A stretch of 64,000 nucleotides of DNA, taken from Mariprofundaceae bacterium. Lineage in GTDB: Bacteria > Pseudomonadota > Zetaproteobacteria > Mariprofundales > Mariprofundaceae. This document shows, piece by piece, positions 49,143-64,000 of this stretch. Within the stretch, counting starts at the first letter, position 1, and every line of letters starts with the position of its first letter. Under the pieces are notes generated by a model. It was not told the origin of the DNA. It was given only the letters and a program-made list of their open reading frames with translations, and made no database searches. Made by a program: the position numbers and the translations under genes. Location of the stretch: the NCBI GenBank assembly GCA_050302175.1, contig JBNLAN010000016.1:6957-70956 (forward strand), written 5' to 3'.

Positions 49143-49573
49143 TTCTTCCCCCAGCAAACCGTTGAGAGCTTTAATAGTTGGCTAAATAGAATTACCCAAA
49201 AAATAGCAAGAACCGCCGCAGCACATGCCATGGCAGCAACGTTTGGAAAAAACAATATAGGTATCAGGGCAGATAGGAACAACATTGGAAGTACCACGGT
49301 CAATACAATTTCAGGCCAGTTATCACAATTCATTGAGCTGAGAACATCACTGGAAAGGAGAATCACTGTTGCAATCATGGATAGAATTATGGCTAGTTCA
49401 AAATATATCGACGGTATTAATAATACGAATCCAATGAAAAAAAGGAGGCCTGCTATCCAACCGCAATTCTCACAACCTCCACCATTCAATCCACAGCTTC
49501 CTCCACCATTTAGTCCACCAACCAGCCGATATTGAATTATACTCATGGGGTCAGGTCTTGAATATTGAATCAT
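49139..49573 (-). CDS. small Gly-rich N-terminus / 4-TM membrane protein (hypothetical)
   Basis: ATG 49573 is preceded by GGGAGGGG and overlaps the transposase stop (ATGA). GLNGGG is repeated twice, followed by four hydrophobic helices. ATG 49546 is an alternative start. Confidence 0.45.
   Translation of the reverse strand: MIQYSRPDPMSIIQYRLVGGLNGGGSCGLNGGGCENCGWIAGLLFFIGFVLLIPSIYFELAIILSMIATVILLSSDVLSSMNCDNWPEIVLTVVLPMLFLSALIPILFFPNVAAMACAAAVLAIFWVILFSQLLKLSTVCWGKK
49547..49571 (-). repeat. inverted 25-bp copy of the repeat core
   Basis: ggggtcaggtcttgaatattgaatc is the reverse complement of 48752-48776 with one mismatch. Confidence 0.85.
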
Positions 49574-50391
49574 CGCCCCTCCCACGCCTTGATCACCTTA
49601 CTCACCAGAGAATAATGAACCCCTGCATAATCGGCTATCTCACGCATGCTATAACCCTGACCCCTGTACGCCTCGCTCATCCATGCTCCCCGCTCATGCT
49701 CCTCATTCACCAGGTCTTCAAGGCTCCGCCGTGCAATATGTTTCTGCATTCTCGGTACTTCAGACCCTGCCTTCACTTTCTTTTGCGCACCCTCACGAAA
49801 CTCATCGCTTCCCAGAACATTCGATCCCGCCGATCCCAGCAAAGGTGCATCCGTCAGCGGAGCATCAGCTACATACTCCCTATAACGTTTTCGACTGCCT
49901 CCAAACTGTTCCAACACCCAATCCACACTATCGAACTTGCGTGCCTTTTCCGTGCCAGCCGTAGCCCGATAGCTGCTCCAACGCCACGCCTCAACATCCT
50001 TGACCATGCCAGCCGCAACAGGGTTACGCACAATGTAACGGCAAAGCGACAACAGATGGGCATCTTTCTCCACCAAAATGGCCTTGTAGCGACCCTGAAA
50101 AACATGCCCGACCCTTGAGTACTTCCGGTTGAACCGCTGCGTATATACCCCATTCAACTGGCGCATTCCCTGACTCAAATTACCTTTGGGGGTTTCGATC
50201 ATCAGATGGTAATGGTTCGTCATCAGGCACCAGGCATGGCAAACCCAACCCAACCGATCTATCACAAGAGTCAGCACTTCAAGAAACATCTCCCTGTCTT
50301 CATCAGACACGTAAATGTCCTCTCTCCCATCCCCTCGGGCTGTCACATGATAAACAGCACCCGGATATTCAATTCGCAACGGTCTCGCCAT
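49570..50391 (-). CDS. IS200-like Y1 tyrosine transposase (REP-associated/RAYT-like) with C-terminal HTH
   Basis: 273 aa with the YHVTARG start block, HUH motif in NHYHLMIE and catalytic-Tyr block LCRYIVRNPV. The C-terminal HTH-like block is YSMREIADYAGVHYSLVSKVIK. Its GC content is higher than that of the surrounding island. Confidence 0.85.
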   Translation of the reverse strand: MARPLRIEYPGAVYHVTARGDGREDIYVSDEDREMFLEVLTLVIDRLGWVCHAWCLMTNHYHLMIETPKGNLSQGMRQLNGVYTQRFNRKYSRVGHVFQGRYKAILVEKDAHLLSLCRYIVRNPVAAGMVKDVEAWRWSSYRATAGTEKARKFDSVDWVLEQFGGSRKRYREYVADAPLTDAPLLGSAGSNVLGSDEFREGAQKKVKAGSEVPRMQKHIARRSLEDLVNEEHERGAWMSEAYRGQGYSMREIADYAGVHYSLVSKVIKAWEGR

Positions 50392-50443
50392 TAAGTCAAA
50401 CTACCAATACCGATTCAACATTCAAGACCTGACCCTTTCTACA
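50389..50443 (+). repeat. 55-bp repeat, copy 2 (includes the transposase start codon)
   Basis: See copy 1. It is followed by a 12-bp tandem duplication ctttctacatcg x2 (50435-50458) and a degenerate core copy ttcaacctgaccccttc (50474-50490). Confidence 0.9.
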
Positions 50444-50502
50444 TCGCTTTCTACATCGTTAAACCCGGGCTAGTTCAACCTGACCCCTTCCTTCTATGTT
50501 TA

Positions 50503-50856
50503 CTATTTCCGAGAATAGGCTGAAGCTATCAATTTATGGAGTGAGACATATGTGATAAAAACACCAGCTAAGAGCAATATATTCGAGATTTTATCACTAA
50601 CGACAATCGAAGCAGACACCAATACAACCCACAGGAAGAAAGAAGTATATAAACATTTATTCTTTTTATTAGTCTTCCTTGAAAAAATAAAAACTAACAA
50701 CCCTATTAAGACGAAACATATTGAGATAACCACAAGAATCGTAAGTTCAACCGTCCATAATAGGTTTTGAATTCTATAACCAACAAAGTTGAGAATAAAC
50801 GTAACAATAGATGCTAAAAAAAGAGAGATTGATAATGTCAAAGAATCCATTTTCAT
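50503..50856 (-). CDS. small 3-4-TM membrane protein (hypothetical)
   Basis: ATG 50856 overlaps the stop of the upstream ORF (ATGA). 117 aa, almost entirely hydrophobic helices. Very AT-rich. Confidence 0.45.
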   Translation of the reverse strand: MKMDSLTLSISLFLASIVTFILNFVGYRIQNLLWTVELTILVVISICFVLIGLLVFIFSRKTNKKNKCLYTSFFLWVVLVSASIVVSDKISNILLLAGVFITYVSLHKLIASAYSRK

Positions 50857-51488
50857 CTTTTCTGCCTCTGATTTTGCTGACAAGAATAAGCAACTAATGC
50901 GAATGCTGAAATCGCTAGAACTACTGCCAATAGTGCGACAATAAATGCGCCTCTCATTAATGCGATTTGCGCAAAAAGACCTAATATGAGGAGTAATGGG
51001 AAAATCAGTGAAATATTTACAAGCATACAATCTTCATAACTTTTATAAACCACCGTTAATTCGCCCGCATAAGCCGTGCCACTTATCATTTGGAATATTT
51101 GATTCAGCACTGATCCTATCCAGACAGATATATTATGGTCTGTTCTCCCCCCATTCATGCCATCACTAATACGGTATTGCCCATCGCCTGTTATCGGATC
51201 GACAATAGCATACCCCGCCCCTGTCCAGCCCCCTACTGTAAGGTTTGAAGCGTGTGCAGTGACTTCCTTGCCTGCCGCAACTGCGGCATTGATCTCTCCC
51301 ATTGCGAATGGAGAAAGGGCAAGTCTTGGAATGACTGTTGCAGCGTTCTGTTGATTGATCTGATAGACAGGCATCCCCTGACTGGCTGCCACGCTAAACA
51401 GCTTCATGGTTGAAACTGCCTGGATCGGCGCTGCCGATGTGCTGAACATCTGCTCCGGAATCTGATGCTCTAGGGAAGATGAAAGCAT
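50853..51488 (-). CDS. hypothetical protein: soluble domain resembling the C-terminal module of large transglutaminase-associated proteins, plus 2 TM helices
   Basis: 211 aa. The block GMPVYQINQQNAATVIPRLALSPFAMGEINAAVAAGKEVTAHASNLTVGGWTGAGYAIVDPITGDGQYRISDGMNGG resembles, from memory only, a conserved module near the C-terminus of very large bacterial proteins. No SD at ATG 51488. Confidence 0.45.
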   Translation of the reverse strand: MLSSSLEHQIPEQMFSTSAAPIQAVSTMKLFSVAASQGMPVYQINQQNAATVIPRLALSPFAMGEINAAVAAGKEVTAHASNLTVGGWTGAGYAIVDPITGDGQYRISDGMNGGRTDHNISVWIGSVLNQIFQMISGTAYAGELTVVYKSYEDCMLVNISLIFPLLLILGLFAQIALMRGAFIVALLAVVLAISAFALVAYSCQQNQRQKR

Positions 51489-51524
51489 ACCAACTGCACG
51501 GAGGAAAAAGGGGACGCTACCCTT

Positions 51525-52058
51525 TTATTCATTTGTGTCCCCCGAAATAACAATACGATCAAAGTGAATGAGCAGCTCTCTAAAATAGTCCTTCAACCTC
51601 GGAGTATTCGCTTTTTCCTGCAATTCTTCCTGAGAAACCTTTGGCATGTTTAATTGTTCATACTTGGCGAGTTTTGGATTAAGAAATATCTCCTCTGCTA
51701 GAGGGTTTATACCATAGTGATCAATCTTCTCTATTTTATCGTCATTTTTCTCTAATGACACTGATATCATGAGACCCCTAAACAATTCTAATTCTTCAAT
51801 GTTTACATGTGCAGTTTTTTGTTGATTTACCCAATTATATATTTTATCCAAATCTATTTTTTCTACTGAGTTGACCTTGCTATCATATCCCATTGATTTA
51901 ACGATTTGCTGAGTCTTCTCTATACTGCTAAAGGCATGAAGTTTGTCTTTAGGTAAAATGGGCAACAAATGATAATCTTGACCAGTAGATTCATCCATAC
52001 CATATATTATCGGCACATAATGCACTTTATTTCCACGCGTAATTTCAAATACATACAT
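51525..52058 (-). CDS. hypothetical cytoplasmic protein
   Basis: 177 aa from ATG 52058 (MYVFEITRG...). Very AT-rich, with no TM segment or signal peptide and no recognised family. Confidence 0.45.
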   Translation of the reverse strand: MYVFEITRGNKVHYVPIIYGMDESTGQDYHLLPILPKDKLHAFSSIEKTQQIVKSMGYDSKVNSVEKIDLDKIYNWVNQQKTAHVNIEELELFRGLMISVSLEKNDDKIEKIDHYGINPLAEEIFLNPKLAKYEQLNMPKVSQEELQEKANTPRLKDYFRELLIHFDRIVISGDTNE

Positions 52059-52315
52059 TAAGCATTCCTCATAGCTTAAAACGACACTCAGCAACATCCG
52101 GCGGGAAAGGATCACCAACGTTTCTTACAGCCGGACGTGAAATTAACCCGGGAGCACATGGAACAGGTTGAGGGCAACCCACTTCAAATGGAAGAAACCG
52201 TGGATGGAGTTGGGAATACCCCGAGCTTTTGCACTGGTAAATACATTGATTCCAACCTGCTGGAGCCCAAAATCAAAGGGATAAGGGGTCAGAGCCGTTA
52301 TTCGCCTATTAACCA

Positions 52316-54424: not shown

Positions 54425-54552
54425 GATTGGCTCTCCTCTCCCATGGGCTCCCATCAACTCCAGTTGTCAATCGCCATTCCAGAGGTTTAACTGATTCCGG
54501 TCAAGAAATTTTCCCAGCCGCATATAGCAGAAACAATCCTTGCTGGACGCAT

Positions 54553-55563
54553 ATGACCGCATGTTTAAGATGGCGAGCTGTGAAGCAATATTTGGCCAAA
54601 CGATTACTCGGCATGCTGCCGCTCCTGCTCGGCATCACCATTATCTCCTTCGGCATGATGCATCTGGCGCCGGGTGAGCCAGCTGTGGTCGGCGCTGAAT
54701 TCAACCCCAAAATCTCGGCCAAGGATATCGAGCGCCTGCGTGCCTACTACGGGCTGGACAAGCCCATCATTGAGCAATACTGGATGTGGCTGAAGCGTCT
54801 GGCTGTGCTCGATTTCGGGAAATCATTCTCCTCCGACAATCGCCCTGTGCTCGATAAAATCACCGAGCGACTGCCGATCACTCTATGGATCAACATCCTC
54901 GCCATGGCACTGATCATGGCGATCGCCATTCCTATCGGTATTGCATCGAGTGTGCGGCAAAACTCATGGTTCGATCGAAGTATGACCGTGTTCGTATTTA
55001 TTGGCTTCGCTATCCCCTCATTCTGGCTCGGCCTGCTACTGATGCTCACCTTCGGCGTAAACCTCAACTGGCTGCCGGTATCGGGCATCCACGACTATAA
55101 CTGGAAGCAGATGGGCTTCATCGAACAACAACTCGATCTCATGCAACACCTGATCCTGCCGGTGTTCGTATCTGCAATTGGAGGGCTGGCCGGTATGAGT
55201 CGCTTCATGCGCACCGGCATGCTGGAGGTGATCCGCTCCGACTACATCACAACGGCACGTGCCATGGGCGTGCCGGAAACCTCGATCCGCTACCGGCTGG
55301 CGCTGAAAAACGCACTGCTGCCCATTATCACACTGCTTGGTCTCTCCATTCCGGGGCTCATCGGCGGCTCGGTAATTGTGGAGTATCTTTTCTCGATTCC
55401 GGGCATGGGGCGCCTGTTTTACGAAGCCGTGCTCTCCCGCGATTATACGGTGGTCATGGGTATCACGGTGATCGGTGCGGTACTGACGCTTTTGGGTAAC
55501 CTCATTGCCGATCTCTCCTACGCCTGGGCCGATCCGCGCATCCGGCATGGAGGGAAATCGTGA
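54553..55563 (+). CDS. ABC transporter permease, DppB/OppB type
   Basis: KQYLAKRLLGMLPLLLGITIISFGMMHLAPGEP N-terminus and an EAA-loop region (YITTARAMGVPE). Start is ATG 54553 or GTG 54580. Confidence 0.88.
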   Translation: MTACLRWRAVKQYLAKRLLGMLPLLLGITIISFGMMHLAPGEPAVVGAEFNPKISAKDIERLRAYYGLDKPIIEQYWMWLKRLAVLDFGKSFSSDNRPVLDKITERLPITLWINILAMALIMAIAIPIGIASSVRQNSWFDRSMTVFVFIGFAIPSFWLGLLLMLTFGVNLNWLPVSGIHDYNWKQMGFIEQQLDLMQHLILPVFVSAIGGLAGMSRFMRTGMLEVIRSDYITTARAMGVPETSIRYRLALKNALLPIITLLGLSIPGLIGGSVIVEYLFSIPGMGRLFYEAVLSRDYTVVMGITVIGAVLTLLGNLIADLSYAWADPRIRHGGKS

Positions 55564-56411
55564 ACCGCTCGGCACTAATGCAAAGCGCCAGGGCGCATCC
55601 TCTGCTGTGGGCTGGCGGTGCGATTGTTGGCACTGTGGCATTGCTGGCACTACTCGCCCCTTTTATTTCCCCCTACAACCCAACTGATCTCAATGTGAAG
55701 CACATCCTGCTGCCGCCTTCGCTCGAGCATCTCTGCGGCACCGACACACTGGGCCGCGATATCTTCTCACGCATGCTCTACGGCGCACGCGTATCGCTGG
55801 CGGTAGGTTTTGTGGCTGTAGGCATCGCCATCCTCATTGGTATTGCGCTGGGGGCGACAGCCGGCTTCTACGGCAACCGCATCGATACGCTCATTATGCG
55901 CACCACCGACATGGTGCTCTGCTTCCCCACCTTCTTCCTGATTCTGGCTGTGATTGCTTTTCTGGAACCCTCGATCTGGAACATCATGATCGTGATCGGG
56001 TTGACCTCGTGGATGGGTGTTGCGCGGCTGGTGCGCGCCGAATTCCTGAGCCTCAGGGAGCGTGAGTTCGTGCTGGCAGCGAAGAGCCTTGGGGTCTCCT
56101 CCATCTCCATCATGCTGCGCTACATGCTGCCCAACGCCATGGGGCCTATTCTGGTCTCCGCAGTGCTGGGCGTGGCAGGAGCCGTACTGGTTGAGTCTGG
56201 CCTGTCGTTTCTGGGGCTGGGCGTGCAGCCGCCCGACCCATCGTGGGGCAACATGCTAACCGAGGGCAAGGACAATCTTGATATCGCTTGGTGGATGTCG
56301 CTCTATCCCGGGCTCGCCATCCTGATCACGGTACTGGGATACAACCTGCTAGGCGAAGGTCTGCGCGATCTGCTCGATCCAAAAATGACCGCGAAATCGC
56401 GCACAAACTAA
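55560..56411 (+). CDS. ABC transporter permease, DppC/OppC type
   Basis: 283 aa with the LCGTDTLGRDIFSRMLYGARVSL block and an EAA loop (FVLAAKSLGVS). GTGA overlap with the upstream permease. Confidence 0.9.
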   Translation: MNRSALMQSARAHPLLWAGGAIVGTVALLALLAPFISPYNPTDLNVKHILLPPSLEHLCGTDTLGRDIFSRMLYGARVSLAVGFVAVGIAILIGIALGATAGFYGNRIDTLIMRTTDMVLCFPTFFLILAVIAFLEPSIWNIMIVIGLTSWMGVARLVRAEFLSLREREFVLAAKSLGVSSISIMLRYMLPNAMGPILVSAVLGVAGAVLVESGLSFLGLGVQPPDPSWGNMLTEGKDNLDIAWWMSLYPGLAILITVLGYNLLGEGLRDLLDPKMTAKSRTN

Positions 56412-56965
56412 AATTCCAGCGCATCTCCAGTTGCAAGATCGCTCTCTTCGGCCAGCAATATCTCCTGCAACAGCGCCATCACCAGCATACGATTATCTTC
56501 CTGCTTGCGCGCATCGACCGTAAAAATCGGTATATCACCTGAATCAAGTTCTGCAGCCAGCTTCTCCAGAGGCATGGCATTCGGTAAATCCTGCTTGGTA
56601 GCTCCGATCACAACCGGAAAGTCTGCAATATCCTTCCATACCTGAATCATCTCTTTGGCTTCGCTGACAGCCCTGTCGGCAACAGTATCGACAAGCAACA
56701 CGCCGCCCAAAGCCCCTTTGGAAAGTATCTTCCACATAAAGGCAAAACGGGACTGCCCCGGCGTACCGAACAGGTGTACGGATAGCTCGTCATCGACCTT
56801 CAGAATACCGAAATCCATTCCGACAGTGGTCATGGCCTTGAACTGGGACAGCTCGCCCGTGGTGGGCACATCCTTGCCCGAAAACTGCTCATCGCTGACA
56901 TGCTGAATCAGCGTTGTCTTACCTGAGCCGAATGGGCCGGAGATGATAATTTTTGCAATTGCCAT
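56408..56965 (-). CDS. small Ras-like GTPase of the MglA/CvnD (COG2229, ATP/GTP-binding protein) type
   Basis: 185 aa with G1 GPFGSGKT, switch I TTVGMDFG, G3 LFGTPGQ (Thr in place of Asp) and G4 ATKQD. GGGAG lies upstream of the ATG. The 3' end overlaps the convergent permease gene by 4 nt. Confidence 0.85.
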   Translation of the reverse strand: MAIAKIIISGPFGSGKTTLIQHVSDEQFSGKDVPTTGELSQFKAMTTVGMDFGILKVDDELSVHLFGTPGQSRFAFMWKILSKGALGGVLLVDTVADRAVSEAKEMIQVWKDIADFPVVIGATKQDLPNAMPLEKLAAELDSGDIPIFTVDARKQEDNRMLVMALLQEILLAEESDLATGDALEF

Positions 56966-57003
56966 GGACCTGCTCCCTAGTTCCTATCCCTGCAAAACCA
57001 CTA

Positions 57004-57618
57004 TCATGCAACAGCTCGCAGTCGTGCCAGAATGCGTGAGGCAAAACCGACAGGACGACTGACCCTGGCGACACTTCTCTGTGCAACCGGCAAAAAATAG
57101 CCTAGGCAGTAACATGTGATCACGATGCGCAGCTTGCGAAGCATCATGTCCGCATCCGTGATGTCAAGGTATGAACCCAGGTTGGCGCCACGCTCAGCAA
57201 GGCCCATCTGATACAGCACCTGGTATTCATGGAAATCTTTCGGGTTCAGGCGGAAAATTATCGCCGCCTTCAGGCGCACTGGTGGCAGCTTGGAGAAACA
57301 TTGTCGAAACACTGCCGCACGCACGTGATGCAGATGCAATCCCGCTAAAGCCCGGGTAAACACCATCTTGGCTTCCATTGGCACAACAATTTTCGGTTTC
57401 GATGGATTCCAGCGAAAACGTAACACCGGCTTCTCAATCACCTGCCTCAGCAACGCAACGGCTTCGCCCTCCCCTTCCAGCATACCGTGCTCAATGCGAA
57501 GGTGGGCATTCCAATCTTTACCTTCAAAATTTATTTCCCAACATTGTCCGCTAGCCAACAATTTACGCAACAAATCGAGGTGTTTCAGTTCATGACTCGC
57601 CTGTTCCTGCTTCGGCAT
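57004..57618 (-). CDS. hypothetical protein co-transcribed with the GTPase (possibly DUF4388-like N-terminus)
   Basis: 204 aa. ATG 57618 is preceded by GAGGAG. It lies 38 nt upstream of the GTPase gene. The block LDLLRKLLASGQCWEINFEGKDWNAHLRIEHGML loosely resembles DUF4388, but the assignment is weak. Confidence 0.55.
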   Translation of the reverse strand: MPKQEQASHELKHLDLLRKLLASGQCWEINFEGKDWNAHLRIEHGMLEGEGEAVALLRQVIEKPVLRFRWNPSKPKIVVPMEAKMVFTRALAGLHLHHVRAAVFRQCFSKLPPVRLKAAIIFRLNPKDFHEYQVLYQMGLAERGANLGSYLDITDADMMLRKLRIVITCYCLGYFLPVAQRSVARVSRPVGFASRILARLRAVA

Positions 57619-57874
57619 CTATAACTCCTCACCTGTTTCAAGGCCCATCACAACAACCCCCAGCCTGAATATGCCAGCCGCAAGCAAGCGACTGTTCGGA
57701 AGCGATTACGTACCCTAAGCACATGATAAGGCATTTGCCCCTCACCCGAATTTTCTCGGATATCGCAAGTCCGGCTCTTCAGAATACATAGCATTTTTCA
57801 CGCCAACACTAGACTGGAGATGATGGCACCCTCATGACATCGACAGGCACCGGCACATCCATTAACGTGCCGAA

Positions 57875-59449
57875 ATGGATGGGGATATCAGAATCATCGG
57901 CTCGATTTCCGGAAAACAGGAAGCGGCATCCTGTATTGCCGCACTACTTACTGCATCCGAGGAAAGCCTGACACATGGCGGAGATTTTACTGGCAAGCCG
58001 ATCACCAGCATCAAAGCCTCAGCCACCCACATTCTTAAACTGCATATGGGGGGAGGATTCTCTGACGAAAAGATTGCCACTTCGTGGGTAATGCACAATC
58101 TTGAAAAAAATCGCCAGAGCGGCCTTTACCATCCTGATAAAACATGGTTTCTCATCGAGCAGGATCAAACCTGGCATGCGGGCAACATTACCCCGCGCAT
58201 GCAACCGTTGCATGTACTAATCGAGCAGTGCGGGCCAGCGCAGGCCATGAGCTGGCTCATCAAAGTTTGCAAAATCTATATCTCACACGCAGCCAACTTT
58301 CAGGATCGTCTCGATGAAGGTCTCTCTAATTTCGGATTAGCCGATGATAACCGCCTCTATTATCTCGATGACGACTTCTATACATGGGATCACTTCCTCT
58401 CATTCACGCACATGCTTGCCGGCTGGTTCCGGCACTATTCCGGTAGCTGGCTCGATGAAACAAAGGCGCGGGAACTTGGCAGACAACTATCCTCCATAAT
58501 CCACGAGGCATTCGACAATACTCCCGGCATCGATTCGGTCCATGTTGTCTATGAACACCTCGGTTCACAATTCCTGCATAACCAAGCACAGGTATGTGCC
58601 GAGCATTGTCGCCAGGAACTTATGGAAGCAAGCCACAATGTGCAACCCGAATCGTCACATAAGTCGGACGCGCTGCATCCCCATACAACGGAAGTCAGCA
58701 CATGGCTGAACGAAGATGAGCCAATCGGTGTACTCGCTGATGTGCACGCGAATCTTCCAGCATTGCGTGCGGTGCTGGAAGAACTCGATCGACAAAATAT
58801 CCAAAGAATCATGGTTGCCGGCGATATTGTCGGTTACGGCCCTCATCCGGCCGAATGCATTGAGTTATTAAGCGAACGCGGCGCAGCTTGCCTGCGTGGC
58901 AATCACGACCATATTGTCGGCACGGGCGTGCCTGTAGCAAGTATGCAGGGAAGCAGGCTCATCGCCGCAGAATGGACCATCAACCATCTTGATGAACATT
59001 ATAAACGTTGGCTAACTGCGTTACCGCTTCAATGGCGTTTCCCACCATGGATTGCTATGCATGGGGCACCCATGGACCCGACCTTCTTCAATGCTTATAT
59101 CTACGACCGCACGGCCGAACGCAACCTGCAGTGGTTACAGGCCAACCAGTTCGACTTCTGCCTGCACGGGCACTCTCACTTGCAGGGTATCTACTGGCTT
59201 AAACAAGGTAACATTCGCTACGGCAAAGGGGCACATGACGCCATCCTGCATAAAACTTCACTCATTTGTCCCGGGTCTGTGGGGCAACCGCGAGGAGGCA
59301 TTCCGGGGGCGGAATTTGCAATTCTTCGCCCAACCTCCCACAAAATACAAATGAGAATCATCGATTATGATCTTGATGAAACCATCCGGGACATGCGACG
59401 GCATCGGCTCCCCGGACAACTTATGCAACGGTTGCGTAACGGCATATAA
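57875..59449 (+). CDS. two-domain protein: unassigned (kinase-fold-like?) N-terminal domain + metallophosphoesterase
   Basis: The C-terminal half carries all five calcineurin-like phosphoesterase motifs (DVHAN, GDIVGYG, GNHDH, MHGAP, GHSH). The N-terminal ~280 aa are unassigned. Confidence 0.8.
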   Translation: MDGDIRIIGSISGKQEAASCIAALLTASEESLTHGGDFTGKPITSIKASATHILKLHMGGGFSDEKIATSWVMHNLEKNRQSGLYHPDKTWFLIEQDQTWHAGNITPRMQPLHVLIEQCGPAQAMSWLIKVCKIYISHAANFQDRLDEGLSNFGLADDNRLYYLDDDFYTWDHFLSFTHMLAGWFRHYSGSWLDETKARELGRQLSSIIHEAFDNTPGIDSVHVVYEHLGSQFLHNQAQVCAEHCRQELMEASHNVQPESSHKSDALHPHTTEVSTWLNEDEPIGVLADVHANLPALRAVLEELDRQNIQRIMVAGDIVGYGPHPAECIELLSERGAACLRGNHDHIVGTGVPVASMQGSRLIAAEWTINHLDEHYKRWLTALPLQWRFPPWIAMHGAPMDPTFFNAYIYDRTAERNLQWLQANQFDFCLHGHSHLQGIYWLKQGNIRYGKGAHDAILHKTSLICPGSVGQPRGGIPGAEFAILRPTSHKIQMRIIDYDLDETIRDMRRHRLPGQLMQRLRNGI

Positions 59450-59460
59450 TCTCCCCTCAA

Positions 59461-59488
59461 AACGAAAAAGGCGGCCCAAGGCCGCCTT
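59461..59488 (-). terminator. rho-independent terminator (minus strand; hairpin shared with convergent plus-strand gene)
   Basis: aaggcggcc-caa-ggccgcctt. On the minus strand it is followed by TTTTTCGTTTT. Confidence 0.65.
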
Positions 59489-59511
59489 CCCCGCTATCAC
59501 ACCCCCTTTGC

Positions 59512-59919
59512 TCAGGGGCAAAATGGAACCACTTCAACCAGGGCGCGACGCATCGCGGTCCAGCCCATGCCAAGATTGGCCTTTCTGGAAGTGACCATCA
59601 CAACCAGCGCATTGGGCTTATCTTTTGCGATCGCCATAAAATGGTAGGTCGCCTCTGTCGACATCTGCACTTCCTGAATGCTGTTCTTTACTTCTACCCC
59701 TCGCTGGGCACTTAAAAGTTTCTCAACAGTTGATACGGTCTTGCCACGGAACATATCAACCGCTGCAGCTGCCACCGCATCAATGTAGGATTGTGTAAAA
59801 TATGGAACGGTGTGATACGCTCCCAGCATCAACCCTGAATCGAGATCAACGACCGAGCAGGCCAAGCCTCCATCCACATCATCAACCAACGTCTTTAATA
59901 CCTCATTTAGTGTGCTCAT
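59512..59919 (-). CDS. Roadblock/LC7-like protein (paralog 3)
   Basis: 135 aa. VDGGLACSVVDLDSGLMLGA ... ALVVMVTSRKANLGMG fits the Roadblock alpha-beta-alpha pattern. 17-nt overlap with the upstream paralog. Confidence 0.65.
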   Translation of the reverse strand: MSTLNEVLKTLVDDVDGGLACSVVDLDSGLMLGAYHTVPYFTQSYIDAVAAAAVDMFRGKTVSTVEKLLSAQRGVEVKNSIQEVQMSTEATYHFMAIAKDKPNALVVMVTSRKANLGMGWTAMRRALVEVVPFCP

Positions 59920-60403
59920 GCGCGCTCCTGTTCTTCATTTCGATCATTTCATTTTTGACTCGCTCTAACAATGCTTCCGGGTTATTCAGAATATCGAGAC
60001 CCCTGATCTCCTCCCCAAAGCGTTTGGTTGCCCTGTTAATCGAATTTGCAGTCCGGCGAGCCGCGGTTAATACCAGGCCAACGTTGATTTCCGCCTTACC
60101 GATCACAGTAAGAATTAGCCCTCCGGCATGTAGAAGTACAAGGGTGCTGGATTCAGCCTGACTGATCACATTGTCGACCAGCGCCTTGCCAGCCTGCCCG
60201 GCCAGTGCATCGGCAAGCGATAACAACGATGAACTCATGGCGGCAATAGAGTCCGGCTCGATACTTGCGTCGGTGGAAGCACTGGTAACCAGCAAGCCAT
60301 CCTGTGAGGACAGCACAGCCCCGGCAATCATATCCGACTCTGTTACCAAATTACTTAATTCTCGTTCGCAGATTGAAACATCCTGATCGGTGAGCTTAAT
60401 CAT
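59903..60403 (-). CDS. Roadblock/LC7 domain protein (paralog 2) with C-terminal helical extension
   Basis: 166 aa. IAGAVLSSQDGLLVTSAS...PDSIAAMSSSLLSLADAL...GGLILTVIGKAEINVGLV is a classic Roadblock/MglB-type pattern. Confidence 0.78.
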   Translation of the reverse strand: MIKLTDQDVSICERELSNLVTESDMIAGAVLSSQDGLLVTSASTDASIEPDSIAAMSSSLLSLADALAGQAGKALVDNVISQAESSTLVLLHAGGLILTVIGKAEINVGLVLTAARRTANSINRATKRFGEEIRGLDILNNPEALLERVKNEMIEMKNRSAHEHTK

Positions 60404-60473
60404 GTGCCATACCCCTCTGCACTTCCAGTTGATAAAGCTTCTTTAGCAAACCTTGTGCCGAACACGCATTGTC

Positions 60474-60836
60474 TCATATTAGCACGGCCAGTTTGCCACA
60501 CACATCACTAAGAAGCTGTGCGGCCTTTGAGGGCACTCTGACAGTAGCCACCAGCAAAATAAAGTGGCTTTCACCTGCATCGAACCCCCTGAGCAACAAG
60601 GCATGCGGCCCCCCTTTCGGAACAATGCACACGATTCCTAACCCGGCCTCCATTCCTGAGGCATTGGCTATCTGTTCGCCGCGACGAACCCATTCGGGCA
60701 ATAGCGCCGCCAGCTCAAACTGTTCGGCGGTACCGGATTGACACACAGCAAGGCCCTCCGTGTTAATAATGGACATCCAGACAAAGTCATTCGTCCGACG
60801 CGTCTCTTCCAGAAACTGCTCGACTTTCAACTCCAT
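60474..60836 (-). CDS. Roadblock/LC7-like protein (paralog 1)
   Basis: 120 aa. FVWMSIINTEGLAVCQSG...ELAALLPEW...HFILLVATVRVP matches the length and hydrophobic periodicity of the Roadblock fold. Confidence 0.6.
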   Translation of the reverse strand: MELKVEQFLEETRRTNDFVWMSIINTEGLAVCQSGTAEQFELAALLPEWVRRGEQIANASGMEAGLGIVCIVPKGGPHALLLRGFDAGESHFILLVATVRVPSKAAQLLSDVCGKLAVLI

Positions 60837-60964
60837 TGCTTACCCTCTCCCTCTTTACTACTATCGATACACAGAGGCTGTGAACATGGTTTATCGTCCG
60901 GCTTGCCGATCAAGTCAACCATTCTCAAAAAGATTTTGGGACAGCCCGTCAACAAGGAGCAAGA

Positions 60965-62053
60965 TTGGTACCGATGGAGCTTGAACAACTGAAAGAGATG
61001 GCCGAGCTTCATCCTGGCAATCCGCGTATCCTCAGAGAGTATGCCGATGCCTTGATGGGAGCAGGGCATATCATACACTCTCGTCGCATCATTCAGCGTT
61101 TGTTCCGCCGTCTGACCAACACCGCCCGTACGGAAGAGGCGCATGAACTCATGGAGACTTATGGCAAGTGGGTTTGCGGTGAGGAGGAGACGCTACGCAG
61201 CCTCGGCGATGGCCCTTTCCTGTTGTTAAATGATAAGCAGGCGCAAGATGGATTACTCAAACGCAGCCGGAGAAAAAGACTCAAGGAGGGTGAAGTTCTG
61301 TTCCGGGCCGGCGAGCCTTCAGATGCAATGTACCTGGTGCTTGAAGGTGAACTTGCCATTTTCCTGTCATCCGGACACCAGACATCGGGCCCCACTCTGC
61401 TCAATCTGGTCAGACGAGGGGACTTGGTTGGAATGAGTGTACTGATTAAGGATCGTGCCGTACGTACCGCCGATGTGTTTGCCAACAGCAATGCCCTGGT
61501 ACTTCAGTTCAATGCGCAACAGGCGCGCGAGGCATTGGCACGATACCCTGAACTGGAATCCCTGATTGAAGAAGAAGGCACCTTGCGAGAGAGAATCACG
61601 GGTCTGGGGCATAACCCGGCATTCCTTCGTATTCCGCTCTCGGAGCGAATTGTCATCGCCGAACAAACGACAGTGATGCGAATTCACACCCCCCAGATAC
61701 TTAAAGAGGAGAATCAGGTGTGTCCGTTTGCCGCGGTTATCCTCTCAGGTGAAGTCGAGTGTTACTTCCAGCTGGGAGGTAAGCAGCATTACTCCGGAAG
61801 CCTTTATTCCGGTTCCTTGATCGGGGCCGAAAAAGTACTTGGTAACCCCCCAACTCCCAACCAGCTCGTTGCCAAAACCGGCACATCATTGCTGACCATC
61901 CCCAGGGATGTGCTCGAAGATATCGCCGACGCATCACCGGAATTTTTACAGACAGCGAAAGAGATTGCCGAACAACAAGCCTTCCAGGACAACGAAACGG
62001 TTCGCGTCCTCCATAAGCAACAAGCCTCAAGGGATAGTAAAGATGACGGATGA
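60965..62053 (+). CDS. helical N-terminal domain + two cyclic-nucleotide-binding domains
   Basis: TTG 60965 lies 5 nt after AGGAG. The first cNMP barrel carries GEVLFRAGEPSDAMYLVLEGEL...GDLVGMSVLIKDRAVRTADV. The second barrel is more degenerate. Confidence 0.78.
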   Translation: MVPMELEQLKEMAELHPGNPRILREYADALMGAGHIIHSRRIIQRLFRRLTNTARTEEAHELMETYGKWVCGEEETLRSLGDGPFLLLNDKQAQDGLLKRSRRKRLKEGEVLFRAGEPSDAMYLVLEGELAIFLSSGHQTSGPTLLNLVRRGDLVGMSVLIKDRAVRTADVFANSNALVLQFNAQQAREALARYPELESLIEEEGTLRERITGLGHNPAFLRIPLSERIVIAEQTTVMRIHTPQILKEENQVCPFAAVILSGEVECYFQLGGKQHYSGSLYSGSLIGAEKVLGNPPTPNQLVAKTGTSLLTIPRDVLEDIADASPEFLQTAKEIAEQQAFQDNETVRVLHKQQASRDSKDDG

Positions 62054-62948
62054 AGAGTTGCATCAGCAGGGTAAACACCGGGAAATGGTCCGTGAGCATA
62101 TTGAAATGCTTATGCCAATGATGAGCTCGCTACATACCAAATTCTATACGCACCTTTTCCTGATCGATCCTGCGCAAGCGACGGTATTCAATGGTAGTGC
62201 CGTCGCTCTGAACAGAAAGTTCATCAATATGATGGCGACATTCAGAAGCATCCGGCATCTCGAAAAGATGCATACAACGATTGAACACCTGAGCCAAAGG
62301 CATGTGACATACGGACTCCAGCCAGAACACATCGAGCCCTTCGGAAAGGCTTTAATCGCAGCGCTTTCGGAACAACTCGGCGATCAATTCACCGACGAAC
62401 TTCGTACGGCATGGATTAGCACTTACGATCAGGTCACGTCCATTATGAAAAGTTCCATACGGCAACACCCTGAGTGGCTGGCAAGCCAACCGGAAAAAGA
62501 GACCATGCATCTCGATGCCGGACTGCTCGAGGCGATCGGAGATACGGAGATCGTGCGTAATGTACATACCCGTTTCTATAACGAGATTTTCGAGGACGAA
62601 TGGCTGGGGCAATTCTTCTACGGCAAAAGCAAAGAGGCCCTGATCAGCAAGCAAACCAATTTTATGGTAGCCTGTTTCGGCGGTCCGAACCACTATCGCG
62701 GTGAGCCGCCGGCGCTGGCGCATATGCATATGCTGATAACTGAAGAGATGGCCCTCGAGCGTGAAAAGATTCTTCGCAAAGCCATTCTTGCTGAAGGCCT
62801 GGATGAAGAAATCGCCAAGCGCTGGCTGAAGGTCGACCGTTCGTTCTGGCCTGCCATTAACAAACAGGGAATCAATGAATGCGTAACAAAATGTTTTGGT
62901 CAGGCGCCAGCCACGGCAAAAAAGCCGACGAACTATCGTCCGCGTTAA
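62043..62948 (+). CDS. tandem globin: N-terminal 3/3 single-domain globin fused to C-terminal 2/2 truncated haemoglobin (group I-like)
   Basis: ATG 62043 overlaps the upstream gene by 11 nt. Globin 1 carries FYTHLF...LSQRHVTYGLQPEHIEPFGKALIAAL. Globin 2 carries RFYNEIFEDEWLGQFF...FGGPNHYRG...AHMHMLIT. Confidence 0.8.
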   Translation: MTDEELHQQGKHREMVREHIEMLMPMMSSLHTKFYTHLFLIDPAQATVFNGSAVALNRKFINMMATFRSIRHLEKMHTTIEHLSQRHVTYGLQPEHIEPFGKALIAALSEQLGDQFTDELRTAWISTYDQVTSIMKSSIRQHPEWLASQPEKETMHLDAGLLEAIGDTEIVRNVHTRFYNEIFEDEWLGQFFYGKSKEALISKQTNFMVACFGGPNHYRGEPPALAHMHMLITEEMALEREKILRKAILAEGLDEEIAKRWLKVDRSFWPAINKQGINECVTKCFGQAPATAKKPTNYRPR

Positions 62949-63502: not shown

Positions 63503-64000
63503 ATGCTTTATCAGTCGGTCAAACAGTTCAGCACTAAGAAGGTGCTACAGGCCTCGCCGGACAAAGAGCTCTCCGCTGCCATTGCAATAATGAACAGCGA
63601 CAAGGTATCCAGCATCATTATTTGCGAAAATCATAAGCCGGTTGGAATCGTAACAACACGGGATATTCCCGGCATTCTGCTCAGAAACAGGGATGCCCTG
63701 CACCGCCCCATATCCGAAAGCATGACGCAGCCGCTTATCACAATCGATGCCGGTTACTCTCTGATGGAGGCACTGGACATAATGACCAGTAAAGGCATCC
63801 GTCATATTCCGATTGTTGATAAAAAGGGGAAACTCGAAGCATTAATTACCGAAACCGATATTATGGATGCTGTCGGCACGACCGACCTGATGCGCAACCA
63901 GAGTACCGCCGACATCATGATCACCGATGTCGTCACAATCATGCCCGATACGCAACTGCTCGCCGCAATCGAAACGATCGCCGATAAGAGAATTGGCAGC
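63503..64000 (+). CDS. CBS-domain protein, 3'-truncated by window edge
   Basis: ATG 63503 lies 5 nt after GAAGGAG. The frame is open to nt 64000 and absent from the ORF track because it has no stop. Repeated CBS pattern present (IGIVTTRDI, HIPIVDKKGKLEALITETDI). Confidence 0.75.
   Translation, partial: MLYQSVKQFSTKKVLQASPDKELSAAIAIMNSDKVSSIIICENHKPVGIVTTRDIPGILLRNRDALHRPISESMTQPLITIDAGYSLMEALDIMTSKGIRHIPIVDKKGKLEALITETDIMDAVGTTDLMRNQSTADIMITDVVTIMPDTQLLAAIETIADKRIGS

Follow-up and report, generated by a model that had tools for sequence, protein, structure and literature searches.

The window analysed here, a stretch of 64,000 nucleotides, comes from a Mariprofundaceae (Zetaproteobacteria) MAG. 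The host is an iron-oxidising marine bacterium. Near the end of the window, each of the eight open reading frames that an initial annotation had described was found, with matching coordinates and strands (Table 1). Of the domain families proposed for them, Pfam upheld those of the GTPase, the phosphoesterase, R166, the cNMP receptor and the globin, and returned no match for R135, R120 or U204. The R135 and R166 genes overlap by 17 nt. For the globin gene, the longest open reading frame starts at 61908, and the public MAG calls the start at 62043 (301 aa); the latter gives the 11-nt overlap with the cNMP gene that had been reported. Scans for consensus promoters and terminators yielded counts no higher than those in shuffled sequence.

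Table 1. Features of the cluster, with positions in the window and the basis of each assignment
Feature	Position	Strand	Assignment or evidence
MglA-family GTPase, 185 aa	56408..56965	(-)	Pfam, PDB profile, motifs
U204, 204 aa	57004..57618	(-)	obligate GTPase partner by neighbourhood; no Pfam match
524-aa fusion protein (whole gene)	57875-59449	(+)	kinase-like N-domain and metallophosphoesterase C-domain
Fusion protein N-domain, residues 1-255, protein-kinase-like	57875..58639	(+)	motif spacing, AF2, Foldseek
Fusion protein C-domain, residues 283-524, metallophosphoesterase	58721..59449	(+)	Pfam, motifs, Foldseek
R135, 135 aa, MglC-like Roadblock paralogue	59512..59919	(-)	PDB profile, hhalign
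R166, 166 aa, canonical Roadblock/LC7 (CvnB/MglB/LAMTOR2-like), C-terminal extension	59903..60403	(-)	Pfam, PDB profile
R120, 120 aa, divergent Roadblock-like paralogue	60474..60836	(-)	hhalign
cNMP receptor, 362 aa, accessory	60965..62053	(+)	Pfam cNMP_binding
Tandem globin, 301 aa, accessory	62043..62948	(+)	Pfam Globin and Bac_globin, PDB
Start of CBS-PAS-HisKA-HATPase-REC hybrid kinase, possible peripheral component	63503..64000	(+)	homology

The GTPase carries the motifs G1 GPFGSGKT, G2 TTVGMDFG, G3 GTPGQ (in LFGTPGQ), G4 TKQD (in ATKQD) and G5 DAR, which are kept in 16 relatives. Its Pfam matches are ATP_bind_1, Arf and Ras, and a PDB profile search returned Arf-like, Sec4 and MglA matches. 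TPGQ in G3 and the MglA match (3t12, 6.7e-11) bear out the original assignment to the MglA/CvnD-type Ras-like GTPases. In the GTPase tree, the Zetaproteobacterial proteins form a clade of their own, sister to the Group 3 GTPases of beta- and gammaproteobacteria. All Group 1 MglA proteins have an arginine next to the G2 threonine (PMC4316618). When motifs were compared with those of relatives, this hallmark was absent from our GTPase, which has no intrinsic arginine finger and therefore does not belong to Group 1.

All three small proteins had been called Roadblock-like, and this assignment held, by Pfam for R166 (Robl_LC7, 3e-7, 30.4 bits, cut-off 23; also MAPKK1_Int) and by profile matches for the other two. 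The PDB profile matches of R166 are 7f8m (1e-13), CvnB5 (3leq, 3e-11), LAMTOR2 (4e-7) and MglB (7e-3). R135 matches MglC (7ct3) over its full length at E=8e-5, and hhalign aligns it with the R166 family at a probability of 83% (E 8.5e-6). The corresponding values for R120 are 94% and 1.4e-7, and this protein also matches dynein LC7 weakly (E 0.04). Pfam searches of R135 and R120 gave no match, and the predicted Roadblock-like nature of these two proteins is apparent at the profile level only. No protein of the module is more conserved than R135, which shares 55-62% identity with its gammaproteobacterial orthologues; these always adjoin the fusion protein. Like MglB/MglC and CvnB, homo- or heterodimers of the Roadblock proteins may serve as a GAP/GEF platform and so control whether the GTPase is in its GTP or GDP state.

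In the N-domain of the fusion protein, G40, T44, K55, D147, N152 and D165 are invariant among 30 homologues, with the spacing DxxxxN-x12-D, and the order of secondary structure in the AF2 model fits a kinase fold. Among the top 50 Foldseek/BFVD matches, 11 are annotated protein kinases (E 2e-4 to 3e-3, probability 0.77-1.0), at low TM. HMM and HH sequence-profile searches of this domain found no kinase match. Given the low-TM Foldseek matches and the motif spacing, with K55, D147, N152 and D165 all invariant, we regard the N-domain as probably protein-kinase-like, in agreement with what had been suspected. The C-domain matches Metallophos (8e-16, residues 283-485) and Metallophos_2 in Pfam, and its metal-binding motifs DxH, GD, GNHD, H and GHxH are all intact and invariant. 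Foldseek places it nearest to 3rqz (8e-20) and SapH (2e-13), then to PP2A, PP1 and calcineurin (~1e-7). The C-domain is an intact PPP-related metallophosphoesterase, and the fusion protein as a whole is bifunctional-looking.

We compared the window with 48 other Zetaproteobacteria loci, making a set of 49. The core consists of six genes, encoding U204, the GTPase, R166, R135, R120 and the fusion protein. Of the 49 loci, 37 encode R166, 28 encode R120 (a single locus can have as many as three copies), 27 encode R135 and 25 encode the fusion protein, and several gene orders occur. Despite several rearrangements, the core genes remain together in the 48 other loci, and also in Gammaproteobacteria. 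All four of the fusion-protein homologues checked outside the Zetaproteobacteria adjoin Unc-GTPase-Roadblock-R135, and in the gammaproteobacterial loci with the kinase/phosphatase a Group 3 'Unc' protein occupies the place of U204. Chance juxtaposition had been named earlier as the alternative to a functional cluster. The neighbourhood comparison shows that GTPase, Roadblock and phosphoesterase genes co-occur in other genomes, and the association of the phosphoesterase with the other two is real in both Zeta- and Gammaproteobacteria. The gene arrangement is more than chance, and the module is real.

In 48 of 48 Zetaproteobacterial loci, the U204 gene immediately precedes that of the GTPase, in most of them with a gap of -4 to +3 nt. 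None of 44 family members has a Pfam match, a PDB sequence search with U204 found nothing, and its AF2 model (pLDDT 88, pTM 0.81) has no Foldseek match in the PDB at E<=0.001. Comparison with Unc, DUF742 and DUF4388 revealed no demonstrable homology. The family comprises only 74 representative clusters among 1.84 billion proteins. The protein ends in a basic helix preceded by a disordered linker. U204 could be an adaptor or effector of the GTPase, produced stoichiometrically with it, and might act through its terminal basic helix and a region that resembles a winged helix.

We consider it reasonably probable that the region is a Zetaproteobacterial MglA-family GTPase module, closest to 'Group 3', with a Roadblock GAP/GEF platform, an enzyme that writes and erases phosphate, and an input from an O2-binding protein. 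The mechanistic steps that we propose for it draw on protein families and gene neighbourhoods. The kinase-like/phosphatase enzyme would add phosphate to, and remove it from, a component of the module; R135 is the best candidate target, because it always neighbours the enzyme and is the most conserved protein. The substrate of the phosphoesterase may not be a protein, since nucleotide hydrolases (SapH) are among the structures nearest to it. The enzyme might then be a phosphodiesterase that cleaves cNMP, Ap4A or a similar nucleotide, joined to a small-molecule kinase or pseudokinase. Instead of protein phosphorylation, a nucleotide second messenger would wire the module, and in the window the cNMP-binding protein would detect it. 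In favour of this, SapH (an Ap4A hydrolase/phosphodiesterase) and YfcE-like enzymes rank next after 3rqz as structural neighbours, the sequence is GDIVGYG where PPP protein phosphatases have GDxxDRG, and a cNMP receptor adjoins in the window. Class III cNMP phosphodiesterases, moreover, are metallophosphoesterases. However, nearly all enzyme-bearing loci are without a cNMP receptor, no cyclase was found in the cluster, PPP protein phosphatases are likewise significant structural matches, and other phospho-signalling enzymes (an ABC1 kinase and a DSP-PTPase) co-occur in related loci. We therefore view a nucleotide messenger as rather unlikely.

The tandem globin consists of an N-terminal 3/3 HGbI-like domain and a 2/2 truncated-haemoglobin domain, matching Globin and Bac_globin in Pfam. 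Its PDB matches are HGbI (3s1i, 1e-14), HGbRL (3wfw, 2.6e-9) and trHbN (~1e-6), the first two being closest to the N-terminal domain. The initial annotation had proposed that haem sensing feeds into the GTPase switch. The globin is non-randomly linked to the cluster, in at least five arrangements, but it is accessory, present in 9 of the 49 loci. In one locus (L014) it is part of the Roadblock operon, separated by 6 nt from the preceding R120 and followed by R166, and in another (L005) the cNMP receptor, globin, U204, GTPase and fusion protein genes form a single co-directional string. In Mariprofundus, a five-gene cassette instead contains an ODP (PF19583, 3.7e-73), flanked by R120 and a Roadblock gene. 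ODP is a diiron O2-binding protein unrelated to globin; in Treponema, it is an O2 sensor (PMC7666581). Counting only loci of at least 11 kb, a globin or ODP is found in 14 of 18 with the fusion protein and 1 of 14 without (Fisher p = 8e-5, not corrected for phylogeny), counts that are inflated by the shared ancestry of the loci. In Gammaproteobacteria, one Unc protein carries fused Fe-S/CDGSH domains.

These observations could be coincidental to the core: the GTPase, U204, Roadblock and kinase/phosphatase genes may alone be the system, and the cNMP-globin operon an unrelated neighbour, e.g., a globin for the detoxification or storage of NO/O2 that comes with a regulator of its own. Forty of the 49 loci have no globin and 47 have no cNMP gene, and the families that the globin domains resemble, flavohaemoglobins and truncated haemoglobins, are often enzymatic rather than sensory. 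In L004, the closest relative with enough flanking sequence (79-80% identity in the GTPase), the whole core is present and the surrounding 5-6 kb contain neither a globin or ODP gene nor a cNMP gene, so that the sensors are dispensable. Nevertheless, the globin recurs beside the cluster in varied positions and orientations, including the intra-operon and co-directional cases above, a non-homologous O2 binder takes an equivalent intra-cluster site in Mariprofundus, and a natural globin-Roadblock fusion is known (PMC4476040). An unrelated neighbour thus seems doubtful to us. Under the reading that we prefer, an O2/redox input to the GTPase module is plausible: in sub-lineages bearing the kinase/phosphatase, an O2-binding protein, the tandem haem globin here and the diiron ODP in Mariprofundus, would convey O2, NO or redox state to the Roadblock platform. 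Such an input fits the lifestyle of a microaerophilic Fe(II) oxidiser.

A cNMP input, which had also been suggested, is weakly supported. The receptor has a TPR-like N-terminus, two cNMP-binding domains (cNMP_binding, 1e-24, in two stretches) and no output domain. Its linkage is weak, as it was found in just two arrangements, that of the window's species and that of L005, where the orthologue is directly upstream of the globin-U204-GTPase-fusion protein string. It may be a further input specific to the species group of the window. The earlier statement that the cluster has no CvnA-type kinase stands, but a CBS-PAS hybrid histidine kinase begins just beyond the globin, at 63503. The 913-aa protein runs off the window (the full gene is visible in L001) and is 38-48% identical to hybrid kinases flanking the cluster in L004, L005, L030 and L042.

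The initial annotation knew of no characterised system with this composition; nevertheless, close parallels had been published, namely the Group 3 MglA layout (PMC4316618) and HGbRL (PMC4476040). The eukaryotic Ragulator-Rag system, in which LAMTOR Roadblock heteromers act on small GTPases, likewise combines several Roadblock-fold paralogues with a small GTPase, and R166 matches LAMTOR2; this is an architectural analogy only, with no orthology and no lysosomal context, and our GTPase is without a C-terminal Roadblock domain. HGbRL is a Methylacidiphilum globin fused to a Roadblock/LC7 domain (PDB 3wfw), for which a relay from globin to Roadblock to MglA-like GTPase was proposed (PMC4476040). 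It shares with our locus the haem globin group and the pairing of globin with Roadblock signalling. Here, however, the globin gene is separate, linked to Roadblock by gene neighbourhood only, and the second domain is a truncated haemoglobin in place of a Roadblock domain.

The Streptomyces conservons (CvnA-CvnB-CvnC-CvnD) and the mycobacterial mfp conservon also pair an MglA-family GTPase with a Roadblock protein, and the gene just before that of the GTPase codes for an uncharacterised protein; in Myxococcus xanthus the Roadblock-fold proteins MglB, which has a C-terminal extension like that of R166, and MglC control a Ras-like GTPase. The cluster might therefore be a canonical actinobacterial-type conservon or a Myxococcus-type MglA/MglB polarity switch that was transferred into Zetaproteobacteria. 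A Roadblock gene beside a GTPase with Thr in G3 would suit either, as would the CvnB5 match of R166 for the former, and the MglC match of R135 and the NCBI name 'MglA' of one Mariprofundus orthologue for the latter. Yet the cluster has three Roadblock paralogues where conservons have one, as well as the added kinase/phosphatase fusion; the G4 motif reads TKQD where Group 2 has NxFD (PMC4316618); RomR/RomX are absent, and no link to motility or polarity was found. Pfam on the window's open reading frames and on U204 members confirmed that a DUF742 (CvnC) protein is absent. Because this protein and a CvnA-type sensor kinase are both missing, the cluster is not a conservon. With the G2-adjacent arginine lacking too, and the GTPases in their own clade sister to Group 3, we consider a transferred switch of either type very improbable, and refuted at the level of family membership.

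The closest kind is the uncharacterised 'Group 3 MglA systems' of beta- and gammaproteobacteria, which consist of a GTPase, an unknown protein and one to three MglB proteins (Wuichet & Sogaard-Andersen 2014, PMC4316618) and of which the Snodgrassella mgl locus is an example (PMC11112851). Our module differs in its lineage (Zetaproteobacteria), in retaining a canonical G4 (TKxD) and in U204, which is shorter than Unc and not demonstrably homologous to it. The 2014 survey makes no mention of a kinase-like/phosphoesterase fusion, ABC1 kinase, globin or ODP (PMC4316618). The two have in common an unknown protein whose gene directly precedes that of the GTPase, several Roadblock (MglB) paralogues in distinct clades, G3 GTPGQ and G5 DAR, a sister relationship in the GTPase tree, and a Group 3-type Unc in the gammaproteobacterial kinase/phosphatase loci.

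All eight ORFs that the initial annotation had placed in the cluster at 56408-62948 were found in the window sequence, at the positions and on the strands reported and with the motifs quoted. A contig of the Mariprofundaceae MAG GCA_050305755.1 codes for an identical GTPase; its gene calls agree, and its globin start corresponds to window position 62043, reproducing the 11-nt overlap with the cNMP gene. A promoter and terminator scan of the window gave results not above shuffled expectation.

Coordinates of the cluster genes, their counterparts in compared loci (L numbers) and neighbouring features
Feature	Locus	Position	Strand
GTPase, 185 aa	window	56408-56965	-
U204, 204-aa protein upstream of the GTPase	window	57004-57618	-
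U204 basic C-terminal tail	window	57004-57045	
Fusion protein, 524 aa	window	57875-59449	+
R135, Roadblock-like	window	59512-59919	-
R166, Roadblock-like	window	59903-60403	-
R120, Roadblock-like	window	60474-60836	-
cNMP protein, 362 aa	window	60965-62053	+
Tandem globin, 301 aa	window	62043-62948	+
Hybrid kinase, 913 aa	window	from 63503, past window end	+
Hybrid kinase	L001	722-3463	
OppB/OppC-like permeases	window	54427-56411	
Low-GC stretch	window	49570-52118	
IS200-like Y1 transposase ORF	window	49570-50391	-
R135	L084	9584-9994	
R135	L087	5964-6371	
R135	L088	8597-9007	
R135	L089	3975-4382	
U204-GTPase tandem duplication	L007	8002-10570	
GTPase with C-terminal extension	L052	3-1079	
GTPase with C-terminal extension	L058	2095-3189	
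DUF4388 protein	L060	8488-9435	
DUF4388 protein	L071	2463-3341	
DUF4388-HTH-GTPase polypeptide	L054	4630-5691	
DUF4388-HTH-GTPase polypeptide	L069	9431-10498	
Iron-sulfur-fused upstream protein	L088	10345-11751	-

To run the refuting check proposed in the initial annotation, we scanned a genome collection with an alignment of the GTPase, which yielded 48 loci in Zetaproteobacteria and 32 distant ones, and clustered and mapped their ORFs. U204 lies directly upstream of the GTPase gene in all of the other zetaproteobacterial loci (48/48), and the gap between the two genes, typically -4 to +3 nt, suggests that they are translationally coupled. The remaining genes are counted over 49 zetaproteobacterial loci, the window included: R166 occurs in 37, R120 in 28, R135 in 27, the kinase-like/phosphoesterase fusion in 25, the tandem globin in 9 and the cNMP protein in 2 (the window and L005). 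The six core genes are kept together though their order and orientation vary by lineage. In L004, the closest relative with adequate flanks, the full core is flanked by housekeeping genes on one side and by a hybrid kinase on the other, and both the globin and the cNMP gene are absent. Because the core persists through rearrangements and L004 lacks the cNMP-globin pair, we regard the six-gene core as a real unit and the pair as accessory. The initial annotation had suggested that the genes make up a gas- and/or cNMP-responsive GTPase switch, a reading that is partly supported: the GTPase, Roadblock and phosphoesterase unit stands, and the cNMP-globin pair has to be taken out of the core.

In Mariprofundus sensu stricto, R135, the fusion protein, R120, ODP (an O2-binding diiron protein) and a further Roadblock gene form a cassette between R166 and U204; other Mariprofundus species lack these five genes in loci whose synteny is otherwise kept. 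Its presence or absence as a unit is seen when L026, L029-L032, L036 and L044 are compared with L034, L035, L040-L042 and L051. On the other side of the GTPase gene, OppB/OppC-like permease genes abut its 3' end in the window, and in Mariprofundus (L026, L029-L044; ORF clusters c7/c8) genes for a LysM-SLT lytic transglycosylase and an SBP_bac_5 solute-binding protein come after that of the GTPase; synteny of the GTPase with a peptide or murein-peptide transporter may be conserved. Farther away, a low-GC stretch (0.415 at 50-52 kb vs about 0.53 elsewhere) carries an IS200-like Y1 transposase ORF and several ORFs without a family, and may be an acquired island.

The assignment of the GTPase to the MglA/CvnD type was borne out. 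It is a single G domain with all of the motifs G1 to G5 (GPFGSGKT, TTVGMDFG, FGTPGQ, TKQD and VDAR), which are conserved in 16 relatives, and it has Thr in place of the conserved Asp in G3 (xTPGQ). Pfam matches are to ATP_bind_1, Arf and Ras, and among PDB entries a profile of the 16 relatives matches MglA (3t12, 6.7e-11) as well as Sec4 and Arf-like proteins. The coupled Roadblock/LC7 (MglB) gene expected for this family is R166, clustered with the GTPase in 37 of 49 loci. Among the variants, L007 has a U204-GTPase-U204-GTPase tandem duplication with no kinase/phosphatase gene within 10 kb. The GTPases of Thiotrichales loci L052 and L058 carry a C-terminal extension of ~170 aa, whose match to the R120 Roadblock profile is marginal (E about 0.05); if truly Roadblock, the extension would make these proteins G domain-Roadblock fusions similar to Rag.

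U204 belongs to a small family, since only 74 clusters were returned when 1.84 billion representative proteins were searched with its profile. Among 44 family members there was no Pfam match, and neither DUF742 nor DUF4388 appeared at E<=1. In the confident U204 structural model (pLDDT 88, pTM 0.81), a disordered linker leads to a basic helix at the C-terminus (residues 192-203); the model had no fold match in the PDB by Foldseek, and the profile had no sequence match there. In position, U204 corresponds to CvnC of the conservons or to Unc, the upstream protein of the Group 3 GTPase loci of beta- and gammaproteobacteria. Comparisons by hhalign were negative with the single upstream proteins of L070 and L057 and with the full-length Unc alignment; the C-terminal halves of U204 and Unc gave a weak co-linear alignment (E 0.0075, probability 5%).

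By eye, upstream proteins from very different lineages (L072, L073, L075, L080, L084, L087, L088 and L060) end in a basic tail similar to that of U204, for example ...SRILARLRAVA, ...SLFSRIRSRLGI and ...LVRAIKRRLQQL. An HMM of the U204 tail scored other GTPase-upstream proteins not above background and did not reach significance. One metagenomic family member, P0140 (450 aa), carries a transglutaminase-like core domain at its C-terminus (PF01841, 2.7e-14). In several distant loci DUF4388 (PATAN) proteins accompany the GTPase: a clear one lies directly upstream of it in Chloroflexaceae L060, a bona fide one beside it, after a Roadblock gene, in actinobacterial locus L082, and in the cyanobacterium Stigonema (L071) another is set apart from it by about 450 nt on the upstream side. 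In WOR-3 (L054, L069), a single polypeptide combines the GTPase with an HTH and a weak DUF4388 match (E 0.0047, below the Pfam cut-off). An iterative search seeded with two DUF4388 proteins found no additional members in the distant loci.

All three proteins annotated as Roadblock-like kept that label, R166 by Pfam and the other two by profile comparison. R166 scores 30.4 bits against Robl_LC7 (Pfam cut-off 23), and its family profile matches CvnB5 (3e-11), LAMTOR2 (4e-7) and, more weakly, MglB in the PDB. R135 has no Pfam match; its family profile matches MglC (7ct3) over the full length at 8e-5, and hhalign relates it to the R166 family with a probability of 83%. The corresponding probability for R120 is 94%, and in the PDB its profile reaches dynein LC7 only marginally (E 0.04). 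On these comparisons, both R135 and R120 are predicted to be Roadblock/LC7 proteins, R120 being the weaker case. The three paralogues form separate sequence clusters, as in Group 3, whose one to three MglB paralogues belong to distinct clades.

The C-domain of the fusion protein is an intact calcineurin-like metallophosphoesterase, with the DxH, GD, GNH[DE], H and GHxH motifs all present; 30 homologues show no variation at the residues concerned (D289/H291, G316/D317, G342-N343-H344-D345, H396 and H431/H433/H435). The closest PDB structures among the Foldseek matches listed are 3rqz (8e-20), then SapH, then PPP protein phosphatases. Because SapH, a near structural neighbour, is an Ap4A hydrolase/phosphodiesterase, a nucleotide phosphodiesterase is an alternative to the protein phosphatase that the PPP matches would suggest and that we use in the model below.

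The N-domain had been called kinase-like, a label that we retain on the strength of invariant residues, the AlphaFold model and matches in BFVD. G40, T44, K55, D147, N152 and D165 are invariant across 30 full-length homologues; these include counterparts of the beta3 Lys, the catalytic-loop DxxxxN and the Mg-binding Asp looked for in a kinase fold, and a kinase catalytic loop and its DFG-type Asp show the same D-x4-N-x12-D spacing. In the AlphaFold model of the fusion protein (pLDDT 91.7, pTM 0.87), strands and helices follow the order of a kinase N-lobe and C-lobe. The best 50 Foldseek matches to this model in the PDB all concern the phosphoesterase domain; against BFVD, 11 of the best 50 are annotated protein kinases (E 2e-4 to 3e-3, probability 0.77-1.0), which must match the N-domain as the sole part of the fusion able to do so. 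No kinase support came from the PDB profile search of the N-domain, from Pfam on 19 members (one AceK_kinase match at 0.022) or from hhalign against ABC1 kinases. A protein-kinase-like fold is likely, and we grade it no higher because the TM-scores of the BFVD matches are low (0.19-0.24 on the query).

Full-length homologues of the fusion protein occur in Gammaproteobacteria, including Methylococcales (37-40% identity, 96-100% coverage; the family numbers more than 1,000 homologues), and all four of those looked up (4/4) adjoin a GTPase cluster. HMM searches of these four loci found the GTPase (E 1e-35 to 1e-40), an R166-type Roadblock and R135 (E 1e-55 to 1e-62). An Unc-type upstream protein is present in three of them (L084, L087 and L088), and the HMM search found none in L089. 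Other phospho-signalling enzymes also accompany the module: an ABC1 (UbiB-like) atypical kinase occurs together with a DUF2621-like protein in L010-L014 and L022 (Ghiorsea-type and relatives) and, in or beside the module, in the Methylococcales locus L089, and L087 has a DSP-PTPase fusion.

Between Zetaproteobacteria and Gammaproteobacteria, R135 is 55-62% identical, as against 33-39% for the GTPase and fusion protein, a gap that points to unusually strong constraint on R135. The R135 gene directly adjoins the fusion gene in the window, L084 and L088, and is one or two genes off in L087 and L089. We infer a direct functional relationship between R135 and the fusion enzyme, with R135 as the best candidate for its substrate or regulatory subunit.

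We also considered possible inputs to the module. The tandem globin consists of a 3/3 globin domain followed by a 2/2 truncated haemoglobin in one polypeptide. In the PDB, its N-terminal domain is closest to Hell's Gate globin I (HGbI, 3s1i; 1e-14) and HGbRL (3wfw; 2.6e-9). The same two-domain protein is found in eight other zetaproteobacterial loci, and no description of a fusion of an HGbI-like 3/3 globin with a 2/2 truncated haemoglobin was found. At least five arrangements exist: divergent from R120 (window); after a response regulator, in the co-directional order cNMP-globin-U204-GTPase-fusion protein (L005); convergent with R135 (L010-L013); within the Roadblock operon, following R120 after 6 nt and preceding R166 (L014); and several kb from the cluster (L022, L025). 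The ODP of the Mariprofundus cassette (PF19583, 3.7e-73) belongs to a kind of protein with which Treponema senses oxygen in chemotaxis (PMC7666581). When loci of at least 11 kb are counted, a globin or ODP is present in 14/18 that bear the fusion vs 1/14 that do not (p = 8e-5 in a Fisher test, which ignores shared ancestry). In the gammaproteobacterial L088, the Unc-type protein carries an N-terminal Fer4_19 domain plus zf-CDGSH iron-sulfur domains and may be a built-in redox sensor. Because two unrelated O2-binding folds lie amid Roadblock genes and a globin-Roadblock fusion, HGbRL, exists in nature, an optional O2/NO/redox input is plausible on genomic grounds.

The cNMP protein has two cNMP-binding stretches by Pfam. 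Anti-phage defence was considered and rejected: PADLOC gave generic cNMP-domain matches to Pycsar effectors and none for the other seven proteins. A hybrid kinase (CBS-PAS-HisKA-HATPase-receiver) follows the globin and a tadA-like deaminase gene, and relatives with 38-48% identity flank the cluster in L004, L005, L030 and L042, at different junctions.

Starting from the parts list, the family assignments and the conservation of the cluster as observed, we propose a mechanism. Roadblock dimers would set the nucleotide state of the GTPase, and the kinase-like/phosphatase enzyme would switch the phosphorylation state of one of the proteins of the module, with R135 the likeliest. U204 would serve as a stoichiometric adaptor or effector. 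A globin, ODP or Fe-S domain would bring redox or gas input, and the cNMP receptor a species-specific one. We offer only as a tentative and rather doubtful idea that this constitutes an undescribed class of pathway, in which an O2/redox sensor and a kinase/phosphatase control a multi-Roadblock GAP/GEF platform that switches a Ras-like GTPase in response to oxygen. Such a class would parallel the logic of Ragulator-Rag in prokaryotes and would be used by microaerophilic iron oxidisers and methanotroph-like Gammaproteobacteria.

GTPases of MglA-family Groups 2-5 are widespread and their inputs and outputs barely known. The analysis adds a conserved component, the kinase-like/phosphatase fusion, always paired with a highly conserved MglC-like Roadblock, and this pairing suggests phosphorylation control of the Roadblock platform. 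The repeated recruitment of chemically different O2-binding proteins (tandem globin, ODP, CDGSH Fe-S domain) supplies a concrete candidate ligand. Zetaproteobacteria live in opposing gradients of Fe(II) and O2, and the module is a candidate oxygen-response pathway in these organisms.

The MglA family has been divided into five groups, of which Groups 2-5 have GTPGQ in common and Groups 2 and 3 have DAR in G5 and a usually degenerate G4 (PMC4316618). The window GTPase has FGTPGQ and VDAR, and DAR is kept in most zetaproteobacterial relatives and the gammaproteobacterial loci. Group 1 (MglA sensu stricto, SofG) is defined by an intrinsic arginine finger adjoining the G2 Thr (PMC4316618); the window has K-A-M-T-T-V-G here, with no Arg in any zetaproteobacterial homologue, and we rejected Group 1 membership on this feature. 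In Group 3, G4 departs from [NT]KxD, often without the Lys (PMC4316618), as in the beta- and gammaproteobacterial relatives (GRxxT, TCSD or TGTD), whereas the window has a canonical TKQD. The zetaproteobacterial GTPases come out as monophyletic in a rough neighbour-joining tree, and as sister to Group 3 of beta- and gammaproteobacteria, including the fusion-linked ones.

Group 2 comprises the conservon CvnD proteins, with G4 NxFD, accompanied by CvnA, CvnB and CvnC (PMC4316618). Conservons have a CvnA-type sensor histidine kinase in the operon, whereas a Pfam scan of 56408-62948 found no kinase gene of this type, as initially claimed, and the nearby kinase that starts at 63503 is of the CBS-PAS hybrid type and has a receiver domain. 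Where conservons have the DUF742 protein CvnC, directly upstream of the GTPase, there is U204, and no DUF742 match at E<=1 appeared in any of 44 members of its family. We therefore rejected conservon membership. A different comparison is HGbRL, in which an HGbI-group globin is fused to Roadblock/LC7 and for which a relay from globin to Roadblock to MglA-like GTPase was proposed (PMC4476040). The globin group matches, but the window protein has a truncated haemoglobin as its C-terminal domain in place of the Roadblock transmitter, so we rejected a globin-coupled sensor of the HGbRL type; our loci lend independent genomic support to a globin-Roadblock relay.

Group 3 loci of beta- and gammaproteobacteria have a conserved neighbourhood in which the GTPase is joined by one or two MglB genes and by an unknown protein, receiver-like at its N-terminus and winged-helix-like at its C-terminus (PMC4316618); three MglB clades are found in Snodgrassella (PMC11112851). 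The 2014 survey of MglA proteins is silent on phosphoesterases, globins and Zetaproteobacteria (PMC4316618). Full-text searches of the literature brought up no paper that connects a metallophosphoesterase with Roadblock GTPase systems, and nothing relevant on Zetaproteobacteria and Roadblock. Taken together, GTPGQ and DAR, the missing arginine finger, the canonical G4 and the tree imply neither a conservon nor a Myxococcus-type MglAB system. Judged by its sequences, the cluster extends the Group 3-like systems to a new lineage, the Zetaproteobacteria, and belongs to a kind of system already known and experimentally almost untouched, with conserved components that were previously unreported.
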